This document shows positions 45,020-64,000 of a DNA stretch of 64,000 bases, piece by piece; the stretch's first letter is position 1; every line of letters starts with the position of its first letter. The notes beneath the pieces were generated by a model, which worked only from the letters and a program-made list of their open reading frames with translations, had not been told where the DNA came from and did no database searches. This DNA comes from Paramecium tetraurelia (taxonomy: Eukaryota), in the NCBI GenBank assembly GCA_000165425.1, contig CT868185.1, positions 186,001 through 250,000 on the forward strand, written 5' to 3'. The position numbers and the translations under genes were made by a program.

Positions 45020-46540
45020 TCAATACAAATCAATTTTATTATTGTTCTATTCATCATCATCGTGAGTTATGCGTATCTTTTGTTTCTAGAGGTTGATATT
45101 GTTCAATTATTCAAACTTTTGTAAATTGTTTAGAGTTTATTTTTCCTATTGATTCCTGAATTATTGGAGTATTAACAAGACAAGTAGAAATAAGAATATA
45201 CACAAGAGAATTTTTGATTGCAAAGACCAATGTGTTTACAATGGGATGATACTCAGACTCAATTAGAAAGTATAATAACATTGTATTTTTGGATCTGGTT
45301 TCTCTCTAGATAGAATCTCCTTGAATCTCTCATCTATTTTTTTAGAACTCTTGCATTTCTCTTCACTCCTTATAATGCCAAAGAACAGATGTTTTCTCAA
45401 TTTATTCTCGATAGGAGCATTGCACACTAAATTATAACTCTGACTGGTTGTGTTATAAAAGTTCAAACTATTATTGCTCACTTGGATTATTTGTGAGTCT
45501 CTAATGAATATCTTATTCTCTGGATCCAAGAAGTGTTGTGCTTATCCCAAACCACTGTTGTGTCTATACTTTTAATGGAAATTAGTTTGTAGAGTGATCA
45601 TATTGACTTACTCCTTATTGATTATAAGAGCTATGTCTTTGTTTAACAACCCAAATCTGATATCTTGTGATTCCAGTTGTATTGTCCCTTCTGATTCCTG
45701 TGTTATATTTACTACCTCATTTAATCCAAATTGAAAATTGAATTTAAATAAACTCAATTTACCTCTCTATTAATTCAACAATTCCAGAACTGCCAAATAA
45801 TCTTGATATATGTCAATGTAATGACCACTTATATTGAATTGATATAAATTAATAGGGTCAAAAGGATCATTGATATCATAAATGGAAATTCCATCAGCTA
45901 CAATAAACAAATTATCATCTTGCAATATAATTTATTTGCATCCATTCCCATATTAATGGATTATAAAATATTCATCATTGTAAGCAAACACTCCATTTTC
46001 TAAACACAAATAAATAATTTTAGTTGACATGTGCTAATAACCCATCAGACTCTGCTTTAATTTAGATGTAAAATCAGCTGACAAATTTTCATTTATTATT
46101 TTCATATTGATAGTATCAAATACACTAACACTCTTTTCATTATAGTAGATTATTTATCCTTCAGATGACAATACCAACAACTGAAGATTCTAGTATTGCA
46201 GATCAATTGTTTAATTCTTGGTTGTATATATTACTTAACCTTACCTTATAAAGCATTCATCAAAACATACTATATCTGAATCTAATGAATTCGATACACT
46301 CATCTGAATTGTTTGCACTGGTTTAAGTCCTATAGCTTAATTGGACCAATAGCAATTCATATCCTCATCATTAATCATTCTATAGGGAGGATCAGGGAAG
46401 TACAAATCAAGGGATCTAATTTGATTCACGTCAAAGAATTGATGCTCAAATGTTTAATTCGGTTAAAGTGTATGTTTTATGGATCCCAAATAATGACTAT
46501 CTTTTGCTGCAGATATATATAAAATTAAAAATAAAAACAT
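45020..46540 (-). CDS. Type I single-pass membrane protein (~500 aa), unknown function
   Basis: Signal peptide MFLFLILYISAA, beta-rich ectodomain, TM ILLCIFLFLLVLLILQ near the C-terminus. Confidence 0.7.
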
Positions 46541-46636
46541 TTAATTATCAAATGCATCATTTGCTCACCAAATATAATCATAATTCTCACAACAGAATAA
46601 AACCAATCGAATAATTAATTAAATATGCAAATATTA

Positions 46637-49600
46637 TCAAGACTAATCTGAGTATACTTTTAGCATGATCTATTTCAGATGATATTGATACTCGTTTTTT
46701 GTTACCCATTTTATAATTGATGACTCATTCATCTATTTATCATTTAGATACATCTAATACTAACCAATATTCATACCTAGCATATAATAATAACATCATC
46801 ATCTCTATTATTTTTATCTATTATGTGTTTAATCAGCAACCTGAGATCACCCTCATTATAGTAATCACAAATGACCAAATAAGGTAATATAGTTTAACCT
46901 AATATAGAATAGTATTGATTCTCCAACCTCTTTTCTATTATGATTTTTGCAGCTTGAATAAACTATTTTTTATCAATCTATGCATCCACATCTTTAATAT
47001 CTTTCCCATCTAGATTATTAAAATATCCCAATTTTCCAAGCAATAACTAGACTCGGGTTAGTTCTTCCTTCTAGAACACCTTATCTCTGAAAGTCTCTAA
47101 AATACTAAATATCAATTATTTAGGCATTGAAGATTTCAATAATTTAGTAATAACAGATCGCCCTATTATTTTCAATTATTCCGATACTTCTTACTATTTA
47201 CTTAGCATGATATTTAACAATATTATTGTATATGTATCAAGATTACTATGTAAATACTCAAACAGTTTTTTGTATTCTGAGATAGGCTATTTGGTCTTCT
47301 TAAGTAATAAGTATATTAATGCTGCGTATTATGATGATACAATCTTATGATCTTTTTATTCATTGTATAATTGTTCCCACCATTAAGTCTCATATAATGG
47401 TTATGATTAGGATCTGTTAATTCTCCAATCTGTGAATCTATCAATCCAATCACTTTTATTTAATTTAATCTCATTGTGAGTTTTAGGTTTTATGTTTAAA
47501 CTAATAAAGACATTTTAAAGAGGGTCTGATTACTGTTGTTAAATAATCTGTTATTCTCTATATTCTACTTAATTAAAGTATATTTTAAATTATTCCAAAT
47601 ATAAACTTAAACGTAACCCTCTTATATATTTTATTTTTGAATTCTTTTTAACATCTTGTAATGAAACCACATAGTTTGATTGTAATTGCAAGAAATTAAC
47701 TAAATCTATAGTTGGAACTCCAAATAATATGTTGAATAATTGGAATGACCTTATTATTTCCTCACTTGGAGTTATGCATTAATATAAGCAATCAAGTAAT
47801 AAGATGGATATTGTTTAACTTTTTTTTACTTGTTCCTACTTTTGATAATGATTGAAGTAATTCTAAAGTAAGTTCTAATCAATTTGCAATTATTGATTTT
47901 ATTAGACAAAATTGAGTGGAATTACTATTTTTTAAGAGAGTCTTGAATTAAATTTATTGATGTTATCATTTGAAATTTAATAGTTAATAGATTTCTCCTT
48001 ATTTCTCATATCCTAAAAACTGAAATCAAATTTGTATTTCAATTCAAGTTCAATTTCGCTTTGAATTTCAGAAGGCTCTTAATCATTTTCCTCTTATTCA
48101 AATATGTCTCCATCTCCACTGGTCTGCATTTCTACCTGTTACTGTTAATCCTAATAATTCTGATTGTCAGTATTCGAGTAATCAGAATTAAAATGATATC
48201 CACTAAAATGAAAAGATTTCACAGTATATTCAAAGGTTTAGAAGTCAATAGACATAAATTATAAACCTTATTTTTAGGCTTAAGCAATTAAGTTGTTCTT
48301 AAATTTGATCTAATTGATTTAAGGATTCTTTATTGAAAATTTGAATGTTATTAAGCTTTCAGTATTGAGCTTAACTCCAACGTCAGGTTTCAATAATTCA
48401 TGTATTTTATTAGTATCATAAACCTCGATGGATTCCTACTTAATATCAATGACTTTATCTAAATCTACATAATATATATTAATAGGTTAAGTCCATACAA
48501 TTTTGCCAAATTTATTTGAAACTCTAAAGTTTTACGCTTATTTAAGATCAGGACATTCATGCAAATTGGATGAATAACCATCTCTAATTAATTTTGGTAG
48601 TTTGACATAAAAATAATGGAATATCAATCTGTGATCTGACAGTTTAGCAAGTTAGATTGAATTGTCAACAACGAGAGTATTTTCATTGTATATTTAGCAA
48701 TTGTTAAAATATTGTTATGACAATGAACCAAAGATTTCAATATTTTCAAGGTGGTTTTCTACAAATTATTTGACATTCTAGACTCTAGATTTAATCTAAA
48801 ATTCTTGGTAAATGGTCAGACTATTTTCACTTTCTAAAAACTTAATTTCAATATCAAGCCAAAACATTGATTATGATTTTCTCTCATCTCTCTAAACAAA
48901 ACTTTTAAATTCGCTCTTAGAATCAGTGTATTGACAATTATCTTAAAACTTAGAGATGGGTTTTCTATCTTCTCTATTGAAAATGCTTTTAGTTTCTGTA
49001 TTCAAACTATGTGCTTAATATGTGGAAGATGTTTTTTTATCTTAACGAATGCTGATAGTTTTATTGCTCATATTGGACGATTTCTGATTTTACAATTTAA
49101 AGGTTTTCGAGGATTTCATACTTTGAGTGTATTAATTCTACAATCGATAATCGAAATTCATCTTAGAACTCTCTCTCAACATACAATCATATTCTTCTAA
49201 GCTCAATTGCTTCTATTATTCAAACATCACAATTTGAGAATCAACCTATTGAGTAAAATCTTTAAATTAGTTCTCTTAAAATTTCAAATAGTCTATGGAG
49301 CCTAATAATGGTGCTTGTAATATAGGTTAGATGATATTGCTATTATTGGGATACTAAAACATCATAGGTTGATTAAATATATTTTATTAGGGTTGATTAA
49401 ATAAATTATTGGAATTGAAGAGATTGTTATTGGAAAAGATGTTTTAGCTATTGAACATATTATTGTTGTTTGGTTATTAACTAAATATATTAGTAGACTA
49501 ATTGAAAATATTGTTATTGTTATTTCCTGAATTAAAAGGTCTATTATTATTATTGTTTTATTAAAAGATGTTGTTTGAATTATTGGTTTACTATTGAAAT

Positions 49601-50301
49601 AGGTTGGCTGCTGAATTGTTATTAGTATTAAATAAGTTATTGGAGGGGGGAGCATTAAATATGTTGGGTGGATTATTATTATTATTTTTATTGAATAAAT
49701 CATTTGAATTATTGGAGAAAATGTCTTTTCTATTGTTATCCGATGGATTGTTGAAGATATTTTGGTAACTATTGGGTTGTTTAAAAAGATCATTTGATTA
49801 GTTGAATGAGTTGTTTTATCTTCTGAAAATATCATTTTAATCTTGAAATTAAGGCGGCTTTAGATCTATTGTAATAAGTAATAAAAACTTTGTTAATTTG
49901 TGAATTTTATCAATTTAGAATTAAAATTGTTTTTCCTCACTGCAGTCTCTAATTGTGATTTATGAGTGTCCTAAATTTATTGTGATCTAATCAAATAATA
50001 ATCTTCTAATCTAATTTGAATAGCACTCTATGTAAATATCAATTTTGTACAATTCCTTTGTATTCTTATTGCATGAACATGTTGGTTGTGTATAAAGTTG
50101 AATTCTGATCCTCTGCATCCATGAGTCCATATGTGATTCTCTGGGATTTGAAAGTTCCTCTGTAAGAGCCTGGAACAGTTGGATTAAAGCTACGAATGAA
50201 GCATGTATTTTATACTTATTGTTTGTTGGAAAGTTATTCGAATTAGTATTGAATGGGCCGAATATGTTATTAGTAGAGGATTAAAATAAATTTATTGCCA
50301 T
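46637..50301 (-). CDS. NUP98: Nup98-Nup96 precursor with NIFN-type repeats, GLEBS motif and autoproteolytic domain (HF|S), 1189 aa
   Basis: GLEBS-like EYKGISAIQIRLEDYY. NIFN/NLFN/NIFS repeats at 49370-49840. APD: LPKLIRDGY..NFRVSNKFGKIVW..VDLDKVIDIKQESIEVYD..PDVGVKLN..TVKSFHFS (48202-48210). About 515 aa helical C-terminal part. Four introns (26, 23, 23, 23 nt). Confidence 0.88.
49370..49840 (-). repeat. Asn-rich N(I/L/M)F(N/S/Q) peptide repeats of Nup98
   Basis: 4x NIFN, 3x NLFN, 2x NIFS, plus NMFN, DLFN, NIFQ, NLFQ, DIFS; no GLFG. Confidence 0.9.
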
Positions 50302-50446
50302 ATTATTAAATATTATAATGTGGATAGAGTTTGTAAATAATTAGTAATCAAAGAGGGCTTAATATAATATGAATTGCAGTTGTTTTTATGTACCCAATTG
50401 ATGTTGTGAATTATTTGAATTTATACAATAATTAATTATAAAATTA

Positions 50447-53400
50447 ATGATGGCTCGGATTTGTGTTATGTTGTTTTTAGTAATCTAGGTTTTGGCTAAA
50501 AAACAGAAGGATTTCTTATTCGATTTGAAATCAGGTAAATCAGTGTCAGTGGAATTGCCTGAGAAGTGGGAAAAGGATTTTATCATTATGTATGTTCGAC
50601 CATAGCAGAATGAGAAGAAGAGTGATATTGGGGAGATCCTAATAAAAAGCAAAGATGAGGAGTTTAAGTTGAGCAAATTTTACGAGACTGCATTATTTAC
50701 GATTAAATCTGATGACATCAATTTAAAATGCCTTAGTGTTCCATGTAAGGGTAGGATTACAGTAATAAACAATGATGCAATTGAATTGAGTAGTAAGAGT
50801 ACAGAGTTGATTTTGACTCAGAAACTGCCTGTTTAAGTGATTTCTATGCAACTACCTAGTAAATATAGTAGGATGGTGGGAGAATTTAAATTGGAAGATG
50901 ATGAATCAGACAAAATAAACATAGAAGTATTTGAAGAGAAGGCTAAACTCTATGGAGATGAAGTTTAGTTGACAGTGGCTGTAAATAGGAAGGATTGTGA
51001 AAAATGCAAATTATTGGCTGTTTTGAGTGGAGATTTGAATCTTAAAGAAGAAGCAACAATAAATGGATAATTGTATTTGTATAAAGATGAAGAAGAAATT
51101 GAGATAAATTAAGAAGTGTAGGATTATTTGTTTGAAAGAGATGAGAACTCCTATTAATTGAAATTGCCTCAATAATTCAAAATTCTATAAATAGGAATAT
51201 TTGGAGATATGTTACCATTATTGAAAGTACACAAGAAGGATAATGTATTTTTTAATTCACAAGAACCAATATAATTGTAATAGAGAGGTCAAGCATTTCA
51301 TGTCATTTTGAGAAGAGAGGATATTGAAGGGGATGAAGTCACTATCAATTTGAGTTAAGGGGGTTCATTGAAATATCTGATGGTTGTGAAACTGATTGAT
51401 GAAGCCATACTTTACAATAATCAGTTGGTATTGTCTAAAATCTAAGATAAGGGTAAACACAATTATTAATTCAAAACTATCGAAAGTGAACAGGAGGTCG
51501 GAATTAAATTAGTATATTTTGAAAAAGGAGCTAACTCTATAAGAATAGCAGAATGTTAAGATGGCTGCTAATTTAGTGATGAAGATAATCACAATTTAAG
51601 ATTTTACAAACATGAATAGAAACCTGTAGTATTTGTGACACCACATTGTTAAAATAAAGATTAAGAAGGATTCTGTAGATTCTAATTAGAAATAACAAGT
51701 GATAATAAGAAAATCTATATGTTGACTACCTAAAATGATAATAATCAACGCATTCTTAAATCTGATGTTGCTTATACCAATTATTTGGAATAGTCATAAG
51801 AAGAACATCTCATTCTGAAATATGAAAAGTCAGATGATGATGAGGAATTAGTGTTCACAGTCAATACTCACAATATTGTCTACATGATTAGTAGAGACAG
51901 CAGTTGTTATCCTGTCAGAATGGAATGTGCAAAACACTTTGGAGGTGTGGATCATCTAGTCGTTCTTAGAGGAGATTAATTGAAACACACTCAATATTAT
52001 ATTACTTTAACAGCAAGAGAGACTACAATATTTCAATTTTTGGCCAAAGTCACTAAATTGAAAGACATTAATATCAAAGTATTAAGAGAGGATGAAACTT
52101 ATAGAGGAGTATTGGAATTGAAGGATGGATAATCCAAAATCCATTATTTTAGAGTCATGATTGATTTCAATCAAGTGGATCAGAATGTAGAAGTAATTGA
52201 TGAATAATAACCCACCATTGAATTTGCTATTCATTCTTCAAGATTGCAAGTAGCTTTGACTTTGAGATAAGGAAATTAATTGCCAACTCTCGAAGACTTC
52301 GATTTGATTGCTTATAATAACTATTTGGCCATCCTACCCCAAGATAATTTTTATTAGAGTTCTGGTAATTATACTATTGGAATTCTGAATATGTTTGAGA
52401 CATTCTAAGATAAGTAAATCATGTACACTATCACTTATTCCACTAGCAGAACTGTTAAAACTCTCCATGTTGGTTAACAATTTGTTGATCTAGCTAAAGG
52501 GTTCAAGTCTAAATACTTCAGTTTCTACTATGGTCAAAATACTACCCTATTTTATATTAGTTTATAAAGCAAAAACAATTCAAAATTAACTTTAACTGTT
52601 TAAAATGATATCAAATCAGATAATAATTCTCAATTCGCCAAGAGTAAAGATTCAAGTACACTTAAATTATCATAATCTGACTTAAATAGTTTGTGTTTAA
52701 ATGGTTTAACTCAAGAGGATAGAGATGAGGATTCAGGTGTTATGGATATTTGTTAGGCTTACATAATAATTGAAAATCACGGCAATGAAGATATCTTATT
52801 TAATATAAATGTTTGGAATCCCCAGGCTGCCTTAGAGCTGAAAGATGGACAGGAATACACATTCAATATAGAATACTTGATGTAAGAAACCTTCCTATAT
52901 TATAAAGTAATTTCAACTCAATCTGATGTTTAACTACACATTAATTCGCATTATGGATACACCAGATATCAAATTTAGATTCTGGATTCTCAAAATTTTT
53001 AAGAGGCTGATTCTCTTTATGCCAAAGAGGAATACAAAACATAACATTCTAAAAGTATACATTCTGATGCATTTCAATTCTGCAAACCTGATTGTGTATT
53101 GAAAATATTATTAGAAGCGAAACAGATAGAATACTAAAGCGATAGAGCAATCAATTTTGATGATACTGTGTAAGTCACAGTTACATAATCATACATGGAT
53201 CTCAAAAGTGGATTACCTATTTAAATTTCAGTAAGCAAGTTTAAGCCTAGGAAATTCATATTTTCAGAAATTAATGATATGACTCCTTAGTCGAAATTCA
53301 AATTGATCTTACATGAAATTTATGGCAAAGGATCAATTTGTCTCTAATTTAACGATGAAGATACCATTGGTTTTCATAAGTGTGAATATGAGGTATAAGG

Positions 53401-55785
53401 CAATGTCTTAGAGTTGAGTTAAGCAGAAATACAAGAGAAATTAACTCAACTCAATCTTACTCATAATCCGTATATTATAATTGAAATCGATTCTATAGCT
53501 GACCATAGCAAGTTTTAGTTATCTTTGGAAATATCAAACGATAGGAATAATCATAAATTGATGATGGGAGTGCCAACAAGAATCAAATTAGATGTTGACG
53601 AAGAAGTCCATTATCAATATTTTAATATCCTAACAGATGAAGACTTATACTTTAAAGTTATTAAGGTTTAAGGAACTTCTGTGATTGAAATCTCAAGATG
53701 TCTAGACAATATTCAAAAGGAATGCGAAGAAGAAACTATTATTAAAGAATAATTACTAGCAGGTCAATCTTACAATTAACACATCATTCATAAAAATGAC
53801 AATAAGAAATATTGTGAATTATGCACATACATCGTCAAAATCAAAACTGTTGTAACCATAGTAGATTTATTAATCGTAGTTACTTCCCAATTCAATTTTG
53901 TGTAATTGCCTTAAAATATTGCATTTACTGATTTCTTGGAGAATCAGAATGATTACAACATCTATCATTTTTCCTATAATACCGATCATTAAATTGAGGT
54001 CTAAGTGAATCAGTACAATGGTGACACTTAAATGTGGATTGGATACAATGCCGTGCTGGATTCCTCTAACTACTAATATGGACCGTATAACATTATTAAA
54101 TAACAGAAATTAATGAATACTACTGCATCAATTCCATACTATCAAGCTATCATCCCTCCAAGGGAACATTTAGAGGAAACTAATTATACTCCTTATGCAA
54201 ATGAATCTCATACTTTGGCAGGCCATTATAATGATGACGATCTCTATATCATTGTTAAGAATAACTAATAGAAGCCATCCAATTATTCTATATTGGTGAC
54301 TCAATCCACAACTGGAAATGGGTAACTTTTATAAGATGGAATCATAACATTTGCTTATTTAAGTAGATAAACCCCTGTTATTACATTATATCATCAATAT
54401 CGTTATCTGAGTTAACCATAATTAGTAGTTAAAATGACTCATTATAATAGAGATATGTAAATCTCAGATTACTTCAGAATAGAAGTATCTAATGAAACAG
54501 ATGCAGAAAATTTCACTCTACTTACACCTCTCTCTAGCAGACTAAATTAATAGATGTACATTTTACCAATTATGGAAGGACTGTTAACTATCAAAATTCA
54601 TAGCCTTCTAGAAATCAAAGGAAATGAAAATGCAAATATTGAATATTAATTTAATCGAGAAGGAAACGTTGTACCTATAAGAAATTACAAGATGAAGGAG
54701 AGATACGTTTATGGAAACAATTATTTAAATAGAATTGATTTATAAATCAGCATTGTAGGCAAGGAAGTCTTATTGATAGATGAAAAATCAAGTTAAAGTG
54801 ATTAGATCTATAATTCTTAATCCAAGTTCTATGAATCCTATATCCCTTATGAAGGTAAATTAGCTATTCAAGTGTACAATTGTTTAGGGGATTTGAATGT
54901 ATCAATAACTCAAGATTACGATTAATTCATTAAGGGGAAATTTAATAGTAGTAAGACAACTGTAGAAGGCTAATTAACAGATATTATAGTACCAGTTATG
55001 CCAGGAGCTGTTTACTTTAAGTTTTAGTCTGAGTAAAGTGTTTATAAGTTCACAACATAAGTGTACAAGGCATCAGACTTTGCTCCATTTGGACAATTGG
55101 TGATGGGAGGTGATGGTCAAATAAACTATTCATTTGAGACTTTTGATTCAGATTTTATTACTGTCAAATTCAAGCCATTGAAATGCGTAGGTTGTGATCT
55201 TCATCAAGAAATGAATAGTCTAATAAAATATTCTATCAGTTGGGGTAGTACAATCTAGTATGCTCATGTGATAGGTCTATGTCAATTTAATCAGTATGCA
55301 GAATATCACGTGAATCACACAAATAAATTCGATAAAGTAGACATTGGTCTATATGCACTTAATCATACTGAATCAATAGTCTTTAATATTACTGTTGGTA
55401 AATAATCAATGCATTCTGAATTGTTTGTTGCTATACGTGCTCAAGTTCTAGTTTTTAACAATCTCACAATTCAAGATTATGAGATGTATTATCATGTTGC
55501 TTAGATAGCCATGCCCAATCTTTCTCTGTACTGGTATAAACACAGATTTTATGAGTTTATCATCGGAGTAGCAATAGTTATTAGTGTACTTTTAGCATTG
55601 TAATAATTCTATTAATTATTAGATTATGTGTATTCTGTAAAATATATAGAAGAATAATAAAGTTAAAGTTGGAGAACCTGAATTTGCAATTAGAGAAGAA
55701 GATGGAGGAAGCAAAAGAGAAAGGAAAGAATTAGACGAAATATGAATCTTTGGATGATGAAAATAATGATTAATCAAATGTATGA
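50447..55785 (+). CDS. Large type I membrane protein (~1770 aa) with repeated beta-sandwich ectodomain modules
   Basis: Signal peptide MMARICVMLFLVIQVLA. One long exon plus intron 55600-55622. TM FIIGVAIVISVLLALLCVFC; cytosolic tail with YESL. Confidence 0.8.
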
Positions 55786-62200: not shown

Positions 62201-64000
62201 AAGATGATTAAAGTCAATAAGCAGAGGAAGGAAATAATCATGATATAGATTAAGAAGCTGATGATTTAATTTTAATAGAAGCTGATTTAAATCAATAACA
62301 AGCACTTCTATATAGTGGGATACATAATTTAATTGACATCATCAAATTCTAATTTGATGAAATCATTAATCTCAAGGCTGATTAAAATTTGAATAATGAA
62401 TAAAATTTAGTTGAAAAAAGAGAGCAAGAATCTTAAACTTGTGAAAAGCATATTCACAATGAAGAAAATGATAAATTATTAGATATTTAGGATTAAATCA
62501 ATTCATCAGCCAATCAGATTAAAGTAGAATAAAATAAAGAAAATGTATTAGAATTACAAAGTGGAAATTTAATTGAGGATGCTGAATCAAATAATTAAGA
62601 AGAATTACTAAATACAATAGAAAATTTAAGAGGTTAAATTTAAAACTAAGAATAAGAAATTAATTAATTAATTTTATATAATTAAGAATATTAAACTAAA
62701 ATAGAAGATCTTCAAAAGACTACAGAATCCTAAATAAAAAAGTAAATAGACTCAGATAATTGTAACAATAAATAAAAAGAAATAATAGAATAAAGTTAAT
62801 ATAGAATTTTAGATTTTGAAAATATGGTATTACAATTACGATAAGAGATCTAGGAAAAGGCAAACGCGATTTAAAGTTAACAAAAACAAATTGAAGAACT
62901 GATATAATAGGAGTTAGATATCAATTTCAAAATGACTGATTAAATTTAATAAAATGAAGAATTAAGTACTAAATTGCATCAATAGTAGTAAGAATTATTC
63001 GATCTATAGTAAAGGTGTCTTCAGTAAAGTTAAGAGTTAAGGATGAGATTATTATTGTTAGATTAGCTAGAGAAAGAGAATTTTGAGCTAGAATAGCTTA
63101 AAATAGGGCATGATTGAGTAGTGGAAGGGTTTAGGACGTTGTCAAATATGACATAAGCTTAGGTGCTCTAGATCGGTTTGAATGACTAAGTGACATGTGG
63201 CGCTAGGGGGGGATGTTAAACTAGATCTAATGTTAGTCTCNNNNNNNNNNNNNNNNNNNNNNNNNNNNNNNNNNNNNNNNNNNNNNNNNNNNNNNNNNNN
63301 NNNNNNNNNNNNNNNNNNNNNNNNNNNNNNNNNNNNNNNNNNNNNNNNNNNNNNNNNNNNNNNNNNNNNNNNNNNNNNNNNNNNNNNNNNGAAATTAAAA
63401 ATAAAATTTATTATTGGTTAGATTAGCTAGAGAAAAAGAATTTTGAACTAGAATAGCTTATATTAGAACTTAATTAAGAAGTGGAAAATATTTAGGGAAC
63501 AATTGTCAAATATAACATAAACTAAAAATACTCTAGAATCAAATTTAAATGAACTAAAATATCATGAAAACGCTTAAAAATTGGAATTATTAGAACTAGA
63601 ATCTAAATGTTAAATTCTTCAAGAAGAAACCTCAACGCAAACGAATAATTTAAAAGAGGAAAATATAAGATTGTAAGGATTAAATGAAACTTTAGAAATA
63701 TAAATTAAAGATTAAAAATCATAAAATATTGATCAACTAAAATAAATTGAATAGATAAATGAAAAATATAATTTAATAAATGAATAATTCACTTAATAAT
63801 AGAAAAATTTAAGTTTGTTTGAGTAAACAATCAATGAATAAAGAAATCAAATATAGGAAATCGATAATGGATAATCAAAATAAGAGTTAAATATATTAGC
63901 AATATAGCATGAATAACTAAAACTTCTTCATAATTAATTGATAATAGAAAAGGAGTAACAATTATCATATATTAATAAGTAATGTTAATAAGAAATTGAT
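59250..64000 (+). CDS. Very long Q/E/N/K-rich coiled-coil protein, 3'-truncated by the window end and interrupted by an assembly gap
   Basis: ATG59250, a 22-nt intron near 59478-59499, then continuous heptad-rich frame up to low-quality sequence at about 63020-63240, resuming after the N gap. Confidence 0.75.
63241..63390. other. Assembly gap (150 N) flanked by overlapping, degenerate duplicate sequence
   Basis: Run of N. 63061-63240 is an error-laden copy of 63421-63620 (gattagctagagaaa..gaattttga.ctagaatagctta..gtcaaatat). Confidence 0.9.

Follow-up and report, generated by a model that had tools for sequence, protein, structure and literature searches.

The window, by which we mean the whole 64,000-nucleotide stretch of Paramecium tetraurelia DNA analysed, carries on its minus strand the gene GSPATT00010609001, with four introns of 23–26 nt. 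The CDS of 3570 nt gives, in the ciliate code, a protein of 1189 aa, and the gene model agrees letter for letter with the database entry P0003 (XP_001441806.1 / GSPATT00010609001). The sole database annotation of this protein is "Peptidase S59 domain-containing protein", and a literature search by accession found no paper on it. The features that we recognise along the gene, from the first codon to the last, are collected in Table 1.

Table 1. Features of GSPATT00010609001, in window coordinates and in the order of translation.
Feature	Position	Strand	Details
Whole coding region GSPATT00010609001	46637..50301	-	ATG 50301, TGA 46639-46637; 5 exons, 1189 aa
Intron 1	50190..50215	-	26 nt, GTA...TAG; spliced in RNA
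GLEBS-like motif	49974..50170	-	residues about 36-93: GSYRGTF...MFMQQEYKGISAIQIRLEDYYLIRSQQI; spans intron 2
Intron 2	50028..50050	-	23 nt; inside GLEBS-like region; removal restores the frame and yields the database protein
Intron 3	49866..49888	-	23 nt; from the gene model and identity to the database protein
N-[I/L/M]-F-[N/Q/S] repeat domain	49351..49854	-	residues about 126-293; 20 Phe, 36% Asn
Linker, repeats to autopeptidase	48610..49350	-	residues about 294-540; charged, Ser-rich, then a beta-rich stretch before the autoproteolytic domain
Nup98 autoproteolytic domain (peptidase S59)	48193..48552	-	residues 560-679; Pfam PF04096 and PDB Nup98 autoproteolytic-domain chains
Predicted self-cleavage site H674-F675-S676	48202..48210	-	cut between F675 and S676
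Helical 514-aa tail, probable short divergent Nup96	46640..48204	-	starts at S676, right after the cleavage site; includes intron 4
Conserved motif FQLFNILFGVPTIDLVNF	47680..47745	-	residues about 829-850; common to protist Nup96 proteins
Intron 4	46754..46776	-	23 nt; its removal eliminates an in-frame TGA and extends the protein by its last 37 residues

RNA reads of X22–X24 lie on the gene's strand only, in 3/3 poly-A RNA runs, and expression is low. Splicing of intron 1 is seen directly: beyond 50189, five X22 reads carry 11 loose letters, which match the end of exon 1 in reverse complement. No spliced read across intron 2 is among the reads listed at this depth. The last 37 residues, which follow intron 4, are conserved in P0155, P0005, and P0006. 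A pseudogene reading was considered for this locus and rejected, in view of an unbroken frame, conserved orthologs, and the presence of spliced RNA.

The first-pass annotation had described an autoproteolytic domain (APD) ending in HFS, and the domain searches bear this out. On the large exon, Pfam PF04096 matches at an E value of 2.3e-15, with 57.4 bits (cut-off 28.4) over profile positions 19–147 of 148, and the domain ends at H674-F675-S676. The PDB sequence search gives 14 matches at E<=1, every one a Nup98 or Nup98-Nup96 chain, and the alignment places HFSGY on the HF(A/S)KY cleavage site of the solved Nup98 chains. The triad H674-F675-S676 is invariant in 4/4 aligned Paramecium sequences. 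When the full-length protein is scanned, PF04096 gives no match, which is probably an effect of the composition filter. By analogy with the rest of the family, the S59 domain would cut the chain between F675 and S676, and the predicted products of such a cut are an N-terminal protein of 675 aa (79.4 kDa) and a C-terminal protein of 514 aa (61.4 kDa). The autopeptidase fold would then serve to dock the N-terminal product to the pore. Just ahead of the domain, no Pfam family was found on residues 455–545. A ubiquitin-like domain before the APD had been suspected from weak Pfam matches in P0160 and P0029; it was not detected in GSPATT00010609001.

Upstream of the linker lies a repeat domain centred on Phe. 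The motif [ND][ILM]F[NSQ] has 15 matches in the whole protein, all within residues 1–330 and 14 of them within residues 120–300; four of the 15 are exact NIFN. The number of NIFN-type motifs was put at about 15 in the first-pass annotation, and the count agrees. Shuffled versions of residues 120–300 contain 0.51 motifs on average and never more than 4, and 0/20,000 shuffles reach 14. The same residues hold 20 Phe, spaced 6–12 residues apart, and 19 of these 20 are invariant among three aurelia orthologs. For the 47 Phe upstream of the APD, the following residue is N in 16 cases and Q in 8. The comparison of motif with spacer conservation in close orthologs (0.80 vs 0.84) is uninformative. A motif count over all 1189 aa returns no GLFG. 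FG occurs four times, once in the first 330 residues (NIFGPF, 14–15) and three times in folded parts, and the description of a repeat region with no GLFG and a single FG at the N-terminus holds. Strictly speaking, the product does not count as a GLFG nucleoporin; its repeats are of the type N-[ILM]-F-[NQS].

A GLEBS-like motif is visible by eye at residues about 36–93 (...MFMQQEYKGISAIQIRLEDYY...), and G36, S37, Y38, R39, F42, and R81–I93 are invariant across three paralog families. A custom HMM made from 21 canonical GLEBS segments scores this stretch at 11.5 bits, whereas the highest of 3000 shuffles has 10.1. The same HMM gives 15.7 bits for P0155 and 11.7 bits for P0154, and 7.7–9.2 bits for the other two paralog families, which is inside the upper tail of the shuffles. 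Support for the GLEBS-like motif that had been proposed here is modest: it stands by inspection and by a score above all 3000 shuffles, but neither Pfam PF21240 nor the PDB sequence search detected the segment. We propose that the 675-aa product would be a Nup98-like barrier nucleoporin, with this putative Rae1/Gle2-docking motif near its N-terminus. In its barrier, about 20 repeats of the Phe-centred type N-[I/L/M]-F-[N/Q/S], set in a spacer rich in Asn and poor in Gly, would take the place of GLFG.

The orthologs of the protein in P. octaurelia and P. pentaurelia have 68–87% identical columns in every region. Beyond these, the P. aurelia species hold three deeply diverged families of Nup98-Nup96-type precursors, with 26–34% identity between families. 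Members of the two families other than that of GSPATT00010609001 come from P. sonneborni, P. primaurelia, P. pentaurelia, and P. octaurelia, and not from P. tetraurelia itself. Word-based homolog searches yielded nothing beyond this protein and Paramecium paralogs, apart from one that gave 4 matches of no use for ciliates. The APD relatives were listed to a depth of 150, and 28 of them were looked up by name. Among these 28, the named Paramecium entries are NIFN-type fusions only, and no entry is named Tetrahymena.

Ciliate nuclear dimorphism requires two kinds of pore within one cytoplasm. To our knowledge, the only molecular account of these dual pores is that from Tetrahymena, and we know of no other ciliate that has been tested for nucleus-specific Nup98s. 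In Tetrahymena, the GLFG-bearing MacNup98A/B are at the macronucleus (MAC) and the NIFN-bearing MicNup98A/B are at the micronucleus (MIC), the Nup98 repeats have a bearing on the import of linker histones, and Nup96 is produced as one unit with MicNup98B (passages of PMC5450191 and PMC4432229). The Tetrahymena background on which the first-pass annotation drew, with GLFG for MAC, NIFN for MIC, and an effect on import, is as these sources give it. Two further points come from a passage of PMC5450191. Atypical FN/FQ repeats occur also in MAC-specific Nups of Tetrahymena, and Tetrahymena MicNup214 is a MIC-specific FG-Nup with NIFN repeats in which the last N is usually Q. The Paramecium protein shares with MicNup214 the Phe context N-I-F-N/Q; unlike it, MicNup214 belongs to another nucleoporin family and has neither an S59 domain nor a Nup96.

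The likeness to Tetrahymena thermophila MicNup98B-Nup96 is one of architecture only: each is a Nup98 whose repeats are of NIFN and not of GLFG type, in one unit with a Nup96, a probable one in Paramecium (for Tetrahymena, Iwamoto et al. 2009 as cited in PMC5450191 and PMC4432229). Tetrahymena and Paramecium are both oligohymenophorean ciliates, and each has a MAC and a MIC. The Paramecium protein differs in packing its repeats into a short domain, with about 20 Phe motifs over some 170 residues, and in having the GLEBS-like motif ahead of the repeats and not inside them. Further, the P. aurelia species have three fused genes, whereas the passages of PMC5450191 and PMC4432229 name Tetrahymena Nup96 only together with MicNup98B. 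Taken across the two genera, the arrangement suggests that a NIFN-repeat Nup98 fused to Nup96 is older than the Tetrahymena/Paramecium split.

By analogy with Tetrahymena, we favour, with slightly better than even confidence, the reading that GSPATT00010609001 encodes a Nup98-Nup96-type precursor whose N-terminal product is most likely found at micronuclear pores. That this product would be specific to the MIC is, on the same analogy, an evenly balanced proposition. At micronuclear pores, the N-terminal product would form a barrier whose non-FG repeats change which transport receptors and cargoes pass, and the Nup96 half might serve pores more generally. The principle known from Tetrahymena pore dimorphism is unchanged by the Paramecium findings, and the "repeat code" idea can be put to the test in Paramecium as a second system amenable to genetics.

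It is also possible, although to our minds rather less probable, that the gene is simply the general Nup98-Nup96 precursor of Paramecium and serves MAC and MIC pores alike, the N-x-F-N/Q repeats being the Paramecium form of the barrier, in which Gly has given way to Asn/Gln in an AT-rich genome. All three Paramecium families have NIFN/Q-type repeats and no GLFG, along with a GLEBS-like motif, an HFS site, and a Nup96-like tail, so that repeat type alone cannot say which family, if any, is MIC-specific. Transcription of the gene in all three poly-A RNA runs agrees with general use. Should Paramecium have no GLFG-type Nup98, the NIFN type cannot be MIC-specific, and indeed no GLFG-type Paramecium Nup98 and no AT-rich, GLFG-bearing relative is among the 150 listed APD relatives. 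This listing is nevertheless weak evidence against a GLFG-type Nup98 because the four known Tetrahymena Nup98s are missing from it too. The accessible part of the PMC4283134 supplements contains no Paramecium entry. Against a general precursor stands the exclusively micronuclear location of the Tetrahymena NIFN Nup98s, including the one fused to Nup96 (passages of PMC5450191 and PMC4432229).

What is the 514-aa tail that would be released by the cut? In its S59 autopeptidase and HF/S site, followed by what looks like a helical scaffold protein, the Paramecium protein is like canonical NUP98-NUP96 and yeast Nup145 (PF04096 + PF12110), and the putative GLEBS-type motif and the Phe-centred cohesive repeats upstream are a further likeness to them. 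The protein departs from that model in its repeat part, with 0 GLFG and 1 FG, and in its tail, which at 514 aa has about 60% of the length of canonical Nup96 tails (mostly 700–900 aa) and is missed by the Pfam Nup96 family. Judging by its sequence, we consider it quite probable that the tail is a short, divergent Nup96. The Nup96-like moiety of the first-pass annotation is upheld in part, by its position after HF/S and by motif-level profile matches above decoys; a direct match to the family was not obtained, since PF12110 finds nothing on the tail and a canonical Nup96 HMM run on the P0003 tail gives a non-significant E of 0.25.

The evidence at motif level is as follows. A profile of the tail, searched against real Nup98-96 tails, matches 8/64 with E<0.01, every time on one and the same LFG motif, compared with 1/640 for reversed or shuffled decoys; the best match has 13.4 bits, and no decoy exceeds 6.7. 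The top matches, P0115, P0053, and P0056, themselves carry Pfam Nup96 at E values of 1e-30 to 1e-42. In P0053 there is a second match near the C-terminus of the tail, colinear with the first, and in P0115 and P0056 the LFG motif lies about 70 residues ahead of the Pfam Nup96 domain. The distance from the cleavage site to the LFG motif is 157 residues in our protein and 300–365 in 5/6 other distinct proteins (the distance of 27 in P0029 is counted from a second HF[ST] site). Aligned by hhalign, the tail and that of P0022 give P 0.0019 (reversed control 0.59); the tail of P0022 in turn matches canonical Nup96 at 98% probability.

The structural evidence is mixed. Two AlphaFold models of the tail, one of the protein itself and one of an ortholog, are all-helical and of low confidence (pLDDT 51.9 and 51.5). 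For model 1, 8/50 rows of the VIA-align fold search belong to the NPC outer ring or the COPII coat, ranks 1, 2, and 5 among them (Z 9.3/8.6/8.1, with 258/237/257 residues aligned), and all seven rows with >200 residues aligned are of this kind. For model 2, from the ortholog, 0/50 VIA-align rows are outer-ring or COPII coat, and the result of model 1 was not reproduced.

The tail might, on the other hand, be a lineage-specific helical domain unrelated to Nup96, in which case the gene would encode a Nup98 with a novel appendage; we regard this as unlikely. Such a reading would account for the empty PF12110 scan and the reduced length, for an hhalign probability of just 1.65% between the tail and canonical Nup96, and for a Foldseek search of the tail against the PDB that returned nothing at E<=0.001. 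It would also agree with the protein atlas, which puts WDR11 TPR (0.78) as the nearest cluster ahead of Nup96 clusters (ranks 8–9, 0.75), all leads being <0.8. Yet the place right after an intact HF/S is the defining position of Nup96, and the 13.4-bit match falls at a consistent, colinear site in proteins with Pfam Nup96. Moreover, the Nup96 encoded behind MicNup98B in Tetrahymena functions within the Y-complex and recovered Nup107 in a pull-down (PMC5450191). The evidence supports a Nup98-type precursor with NIFN-type repeats and an S59 autopeptidase, probably followed by a divergent Nup96. As a short, strongly diverged Nup96, the 514-aa product would be an outer-ring (Y-complex) scaffold protein.

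The presence of three fused families leads to a broader idea, that three ancient Nup98-Nup96 genes are deployed to different nuclei or stages, each bringing a nucleus-specific barrier and Nup96 scaffold; we think it doubtful. If the paralogs were nucleus-specific, pore dimorphism would run deeper than in Tetrahymena, where scaffold proteins are shared. Improbable, in our judgement, is the particular version in which the three families split the work among the MIC, the mature MAC, and the developing new MAC, with the fastest-evolving GSPATT00010609001 family acting outside the vegetative MIC, which would fit families at 26–34% identity that have all retained a GLEBS-like motif, HFS, and a tail, and an APD tree in which seven Paramecium rows lie on one side of a branch (SH-aLRT 90) and no stem is longer than that of this family (1.4 changes per column), but composition bias is flagged in 4/7 of those Paramecium rows and the other two families are known from P. 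aurelia species other than P. tetraurelia. Whichever pores they serve, the three diverged fused paralogs are themselves a lead for annotating ciliate pore proteins, as are a probable Nup96 half whose shortness and divergence hide it from Pfam and an S59 domain that vanishes from the full-length Pfam scan.

GSPATT00010609001 is a real, expressed and conserved gene for a Nup98–Nup96-type precursor with NIFN-type repeats. Under the ciliate code, a minus-strand frame runs here from stop to stop between 50817 and 46771, with a local G+C of 22–34%, and the introns of the gene were modelled from a reading of the sequence together with a list of GT[A/T]...YAG candidates. The interval of the first-pass annotation, 46637..50301, coincides exactly with the ATG and TGA of this model. 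In a word-based library search, the model is letter-identical (100% over 1189 aa) to a Paramecium tetraurelia library protein named XP_001441806.1, CAK74409.1, A0CUE2 or GSPATT00010609001, whose existing annotation says only “unnamed protein product”, “uncharacterized protein” or “Peptidase S59 domain-containing protein”.

Features of GSPATT00010609001 in window coordinates
Feature	Position	Strand	Details
CDS	ATG 50301, TGA ends 46637	minus	3570 nt, 1189 aa
Intron 1	50215-50190	minus	GT[A/T]...YAG candidate
Intron 2	50050-50028	minus	GT[A/T]...YAG candidate
Intron 3	49888-49866	minus	GT[A/T]...YAG candidate
Intron 4	46776-46754	minus	GT[A/T]...YAG candidate
Motif [LF][FIM]N.LFG..xIDL..[YF]	47680-47745	minus	FQLFNILFGVPTIDLVNF at residues 831-848; tail profile

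Expression was checked over the region 46300-50700 in three 2026 oligo-dT runs carrying the same species label, with coded culture conditions, which placed 80, 154 and 44 reads there. Across the gene body, where depth is about 0–5, reads occur solely in the orientation that a minus-strand transcript would give; those of opposite orientation start at about 50416, at the onset of the neighbouring plus-strand gene. In one run, X22, five reads reach 50189 and then go on with 11 unaligned letters, which reproduce in reverse complement the end of exon 1. Therefore, intron 1 is spliced in RNA; splice reads cover this intron only, depth at the other three being too low for listing.

The Nup98-96 autopeptidase S59 domain (APD) is found on the large exon with a Pfam E of 2.3e-15 (57.4 bits, cut-off 28.4). 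All 14 PDB sequence matches at E<=1 are Nup98 APD or Nup98–Nup96 chains, and the segment ...KSFHFSGYH aligns with the ...HFAKYG or ...HFSKYG end of the solved Nup98 domains, which bears out the proposal of an autoproteolytic domain ending in HFS. Cleavage at the predicted site, F675|S676, would yield products of 675 aa (79.4 kDa) and 514 aa (61.4 kDa). A Pfam scan of the full-length protein returns no family, although the large exon at 46777-49863 (minus strand) alone gives the E of 2.3e-15; apparently, the N-rich repeats trip HMMER filters and hide the domain. The precomputed annotation of the protein is blank because the full-length sequence yields no Pfam family, and caution is in order, since automated annotation can miss the S59 domain in proteins of such biased composition. 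Directly before the APD, weak Pfam “ubiquitin” matches occur in two distant Nup98–96 proteins (P0160, residues 697–765, E 0.0017; P0029, residues 163–234, E 0.0078), and none was found in the equivalent β-rich stretch here, 48595-48867 (minus strand). Some lineages may carry a ubiquitin-like module in front of the APD.

The repeats are of the type first described. The product contains 15 matches to [ND][ILM]F[NSQ], four of them exact NIFN, all within residues 1–330 and 14 within residues 120–300. There is no GLFG in the 1189 aa, and only one of four FG falls in the first 330 residues (NIFGPF, 14–15). In residues 120–300, Asn makes up 36%, and 20 Phe occur at a spacing of 6–12 residues. When this segment is shuffled, motifs number 0.51 on average and 4 at most; none of 20,000 shuffles attains 14, and composition does not account for the motif.

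Residues ~36–93, GSYRGTF...NMFMQQEYKGISAIQIRLEDYYLIRSQQI, precede these repeats, whereas in canonical Nup98 the GLEBS lies inside the repeat domain. Among the relatives found, the canonical pattern is GT....Y..T...DG...I.L.SITAM..YE.KSFEELR.EDY. An HMM built from 21 canonical Nup98 segments was run on 3006 targets, including 3000 shuffles; three orthologs of GSPATT00010609001, at 15.7, 11.7 and 11.5 bits, took the top three places, the best shuffle scoring 10.1 bits. Two other paralog families align at the same place with 7.7–9.2 bits, within the upper tail of the null, and the block does not vary among the Paramecium paralogs. This HMM gives the claimed GLEBS-like motif modest support; neither the Pfam Nup98_GLEBS model nor the PDB sequence search matches these residues. 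Judged by its sequence, the block is probably a diverged GLEBS and a candidate for binding.

Is the 514-aa tail beyond the predicted cleavage site a Nup96? Direct comparisons do not say so. The Pfam scan finds no PF12110 (Nup96) match in the tail, a canonical Nup96 HMM from 31 long Nup98–96 proteins gives a non-significant E of 0.25, and hhalign against canonical Nup96 returns a probability of 1.65%. A protein atlas offers only leads below 0.8, with Nup96 clusters at ranks 8–9, and Foldseek of the tail model has no match at E<=0.001. Two AlphaFold models, both all-helical, are poor (pLDDT 51.9 and 51.5). In a structural search with model 1, pore outer-ring entries rank 1, 2 and 5 (Z 9.3, 8.6 and 8.1, within the tool's warning range for helical proteins; rmsd 6.5, 4.8 and 5.3; 258, 237 and 257 residues aligned), and outer-ring or COPII coat entries make up 8 of 50 rows, including all seven with more than 200 residues aligned. 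The ortholog tail model gives 0 of 50 such rows and does not reproduce this result.

The case for Nup96 comes instead from intermediates. A Paramecium tail profile was searched against 64 relative tails of at least 300 aa and 640 reversed or shuffled decoys. Eight of the 64 (six distinct proteins) match at E<0.01, all at profile positions 151–184, with a best score of 13.4 bits, as against one decoy at 6.7 bits. The shared segment is the LFG motif of the table, the sole part of the Paramecium tail tied to Nup96 by profile searches; it recurs in protist Nup98–96 proteins (P0115 at 837, P0056 at 887, P0022 at 981, P0029 at 744, P0034 at 733). The best three matches have Pfam Nup96 (P0115, E 9.4e-36; P0053, 5.6e-30; P0056, 1.6e-42), the domain starting about 70 residues past the motif in P0115 and P0056, and P0053 has a second, colinear match close to the C-terminus. 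Independently, by hhalign, Paramecium tails meet the P0022 tail at the motif (P 0.0019; reversed control 0.59), and the P0022 tail meets canonical Nup96 with 98% probability. The motif lies 157 residues past the cleavage site in GSPATT00010609001, compared with 300–365 in five of the six other distinct proteins (the sixth, P0029, gives 27 only because a second HF[ST] site served as the starting point), and tails of other Nup98–96 proteins mostly have 700–900 aa. As for the Nup96-like moiety proposed at first pass, these profile and hhalign matches, taken with the start of the tail right behind the cleavage site, make it quite likely that the tail is a short, diverged Nup96. P0022 and P0162 are metagenome Nup98–Nup96 proteins of an uncultured organism (1108 and 1114 aa), with N/S-L-F-N/Q/P repeats, no FG and no GLEBS-like motif; hence, non-FG Nup98–96 fusions occur outside Paramecium.

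When the APD and tail were used in an exhaustive HMMER scan, 200 proteins reached E<=0.001, of which 150 were listed. Matches extend past the APD into the tail in three of these 150: P0004 (77% identical, a fragment from P. primaurelia that is clustered with a full-length P. pentaurelia protein), P0005 (33%, P. sonneborni) and P0006 (30%, P. octaurelia). The P0005 family has another member in P. primaurelia and P. pentaurelia. The three families share one plan: the GLEBS-like block, N-[ILV]-F-[NQS] repeats, no GLFG, HFS and a tail of 505–535 aa. Members of the two other families, which come from P. aurelia species (P0005, P0166, P0167 and P0006; P. sonneborni, P. primaurelia, P. pentaurelia and P. 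octaurelia), are deeply diverged at 26–34% identity and also carry an RLEDYYLIR block. A second P. tetraurelia protein near this product was found neither by word-based searches nor among the HMMER matches listed. A quick maximum-likelihood tree was built from 94 APDs (148 columns), all of them from stored proteins of 500 aa or longer in which 110 or more profile positions matched. In it, the seven Paramecium rows fall on one side of a branch with SH-aLRT 90, a grouping that may be helped by composition, since bias was flagged in four of the seven. The GSPATT00010609001 family has the longest stem, 1.4 changes per column.

The Tetrahymena background is as first claimed: GLFG-bearing MacNup98A/B are exclusively macronuclear and NIFN-bearing MicNup98A/B exclusively micronuclear (PMC5450191, PMC4432229), and MicNup214 has NIFN/Q repeats too (PMC5450191). 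Since Tetrahymena Nup96 is encoded in one unit with the NIFN-type MicNup98B, the Paramecium gene shares the MicNup98B–Nup96 architecture and is its counterpart in that respect. No study of Paramecium Nup98 turned up in the open-access papers and bioRxiv, and the listed matches on NIFN repeats or MicNup98 all concern Tetrahymena or general pore biology. By analogy, it is reasonable to suppose that the product might be micronuclear, and we give this roughly even chances; the existence of three NIFN-type paralog families complicates the matter. For a shared “repeat code”, Paramecium would also need a Nup98 of the GLFG type. GLFG is absent from every protein of Paramecium-like composition among the 150 listed APD relatives, and relatives named Paramecium among 28 looked up are only NIFN-type fusions. 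This absence carries little weight because the four known Tetrahymena Nup98s are likewise missing among the named relatives. It is conceivable, though rather unlikely, that the Nup98 barrier and the Nup96 scaffold alike come in nucleus- or stage-specific versions.

Both neighbouring frames are without a Pfam family. The divergent one, 50447-55678 (plus strand), is a 1744-aa open frame, transcribed in the RNA runs, with a hydrophobic, signal-like N-terminal start and a hydrophobic C-terminal segment. The downstream one, 45023-46564 (minus strand), runs from stop to stop over 514 aa and has a hydrophobic C-terminal segment, and RNA depth is 2.5–9.4 in the bin 46300-46446. The window also contains an assembly gap of 150 N at 63241-63390.
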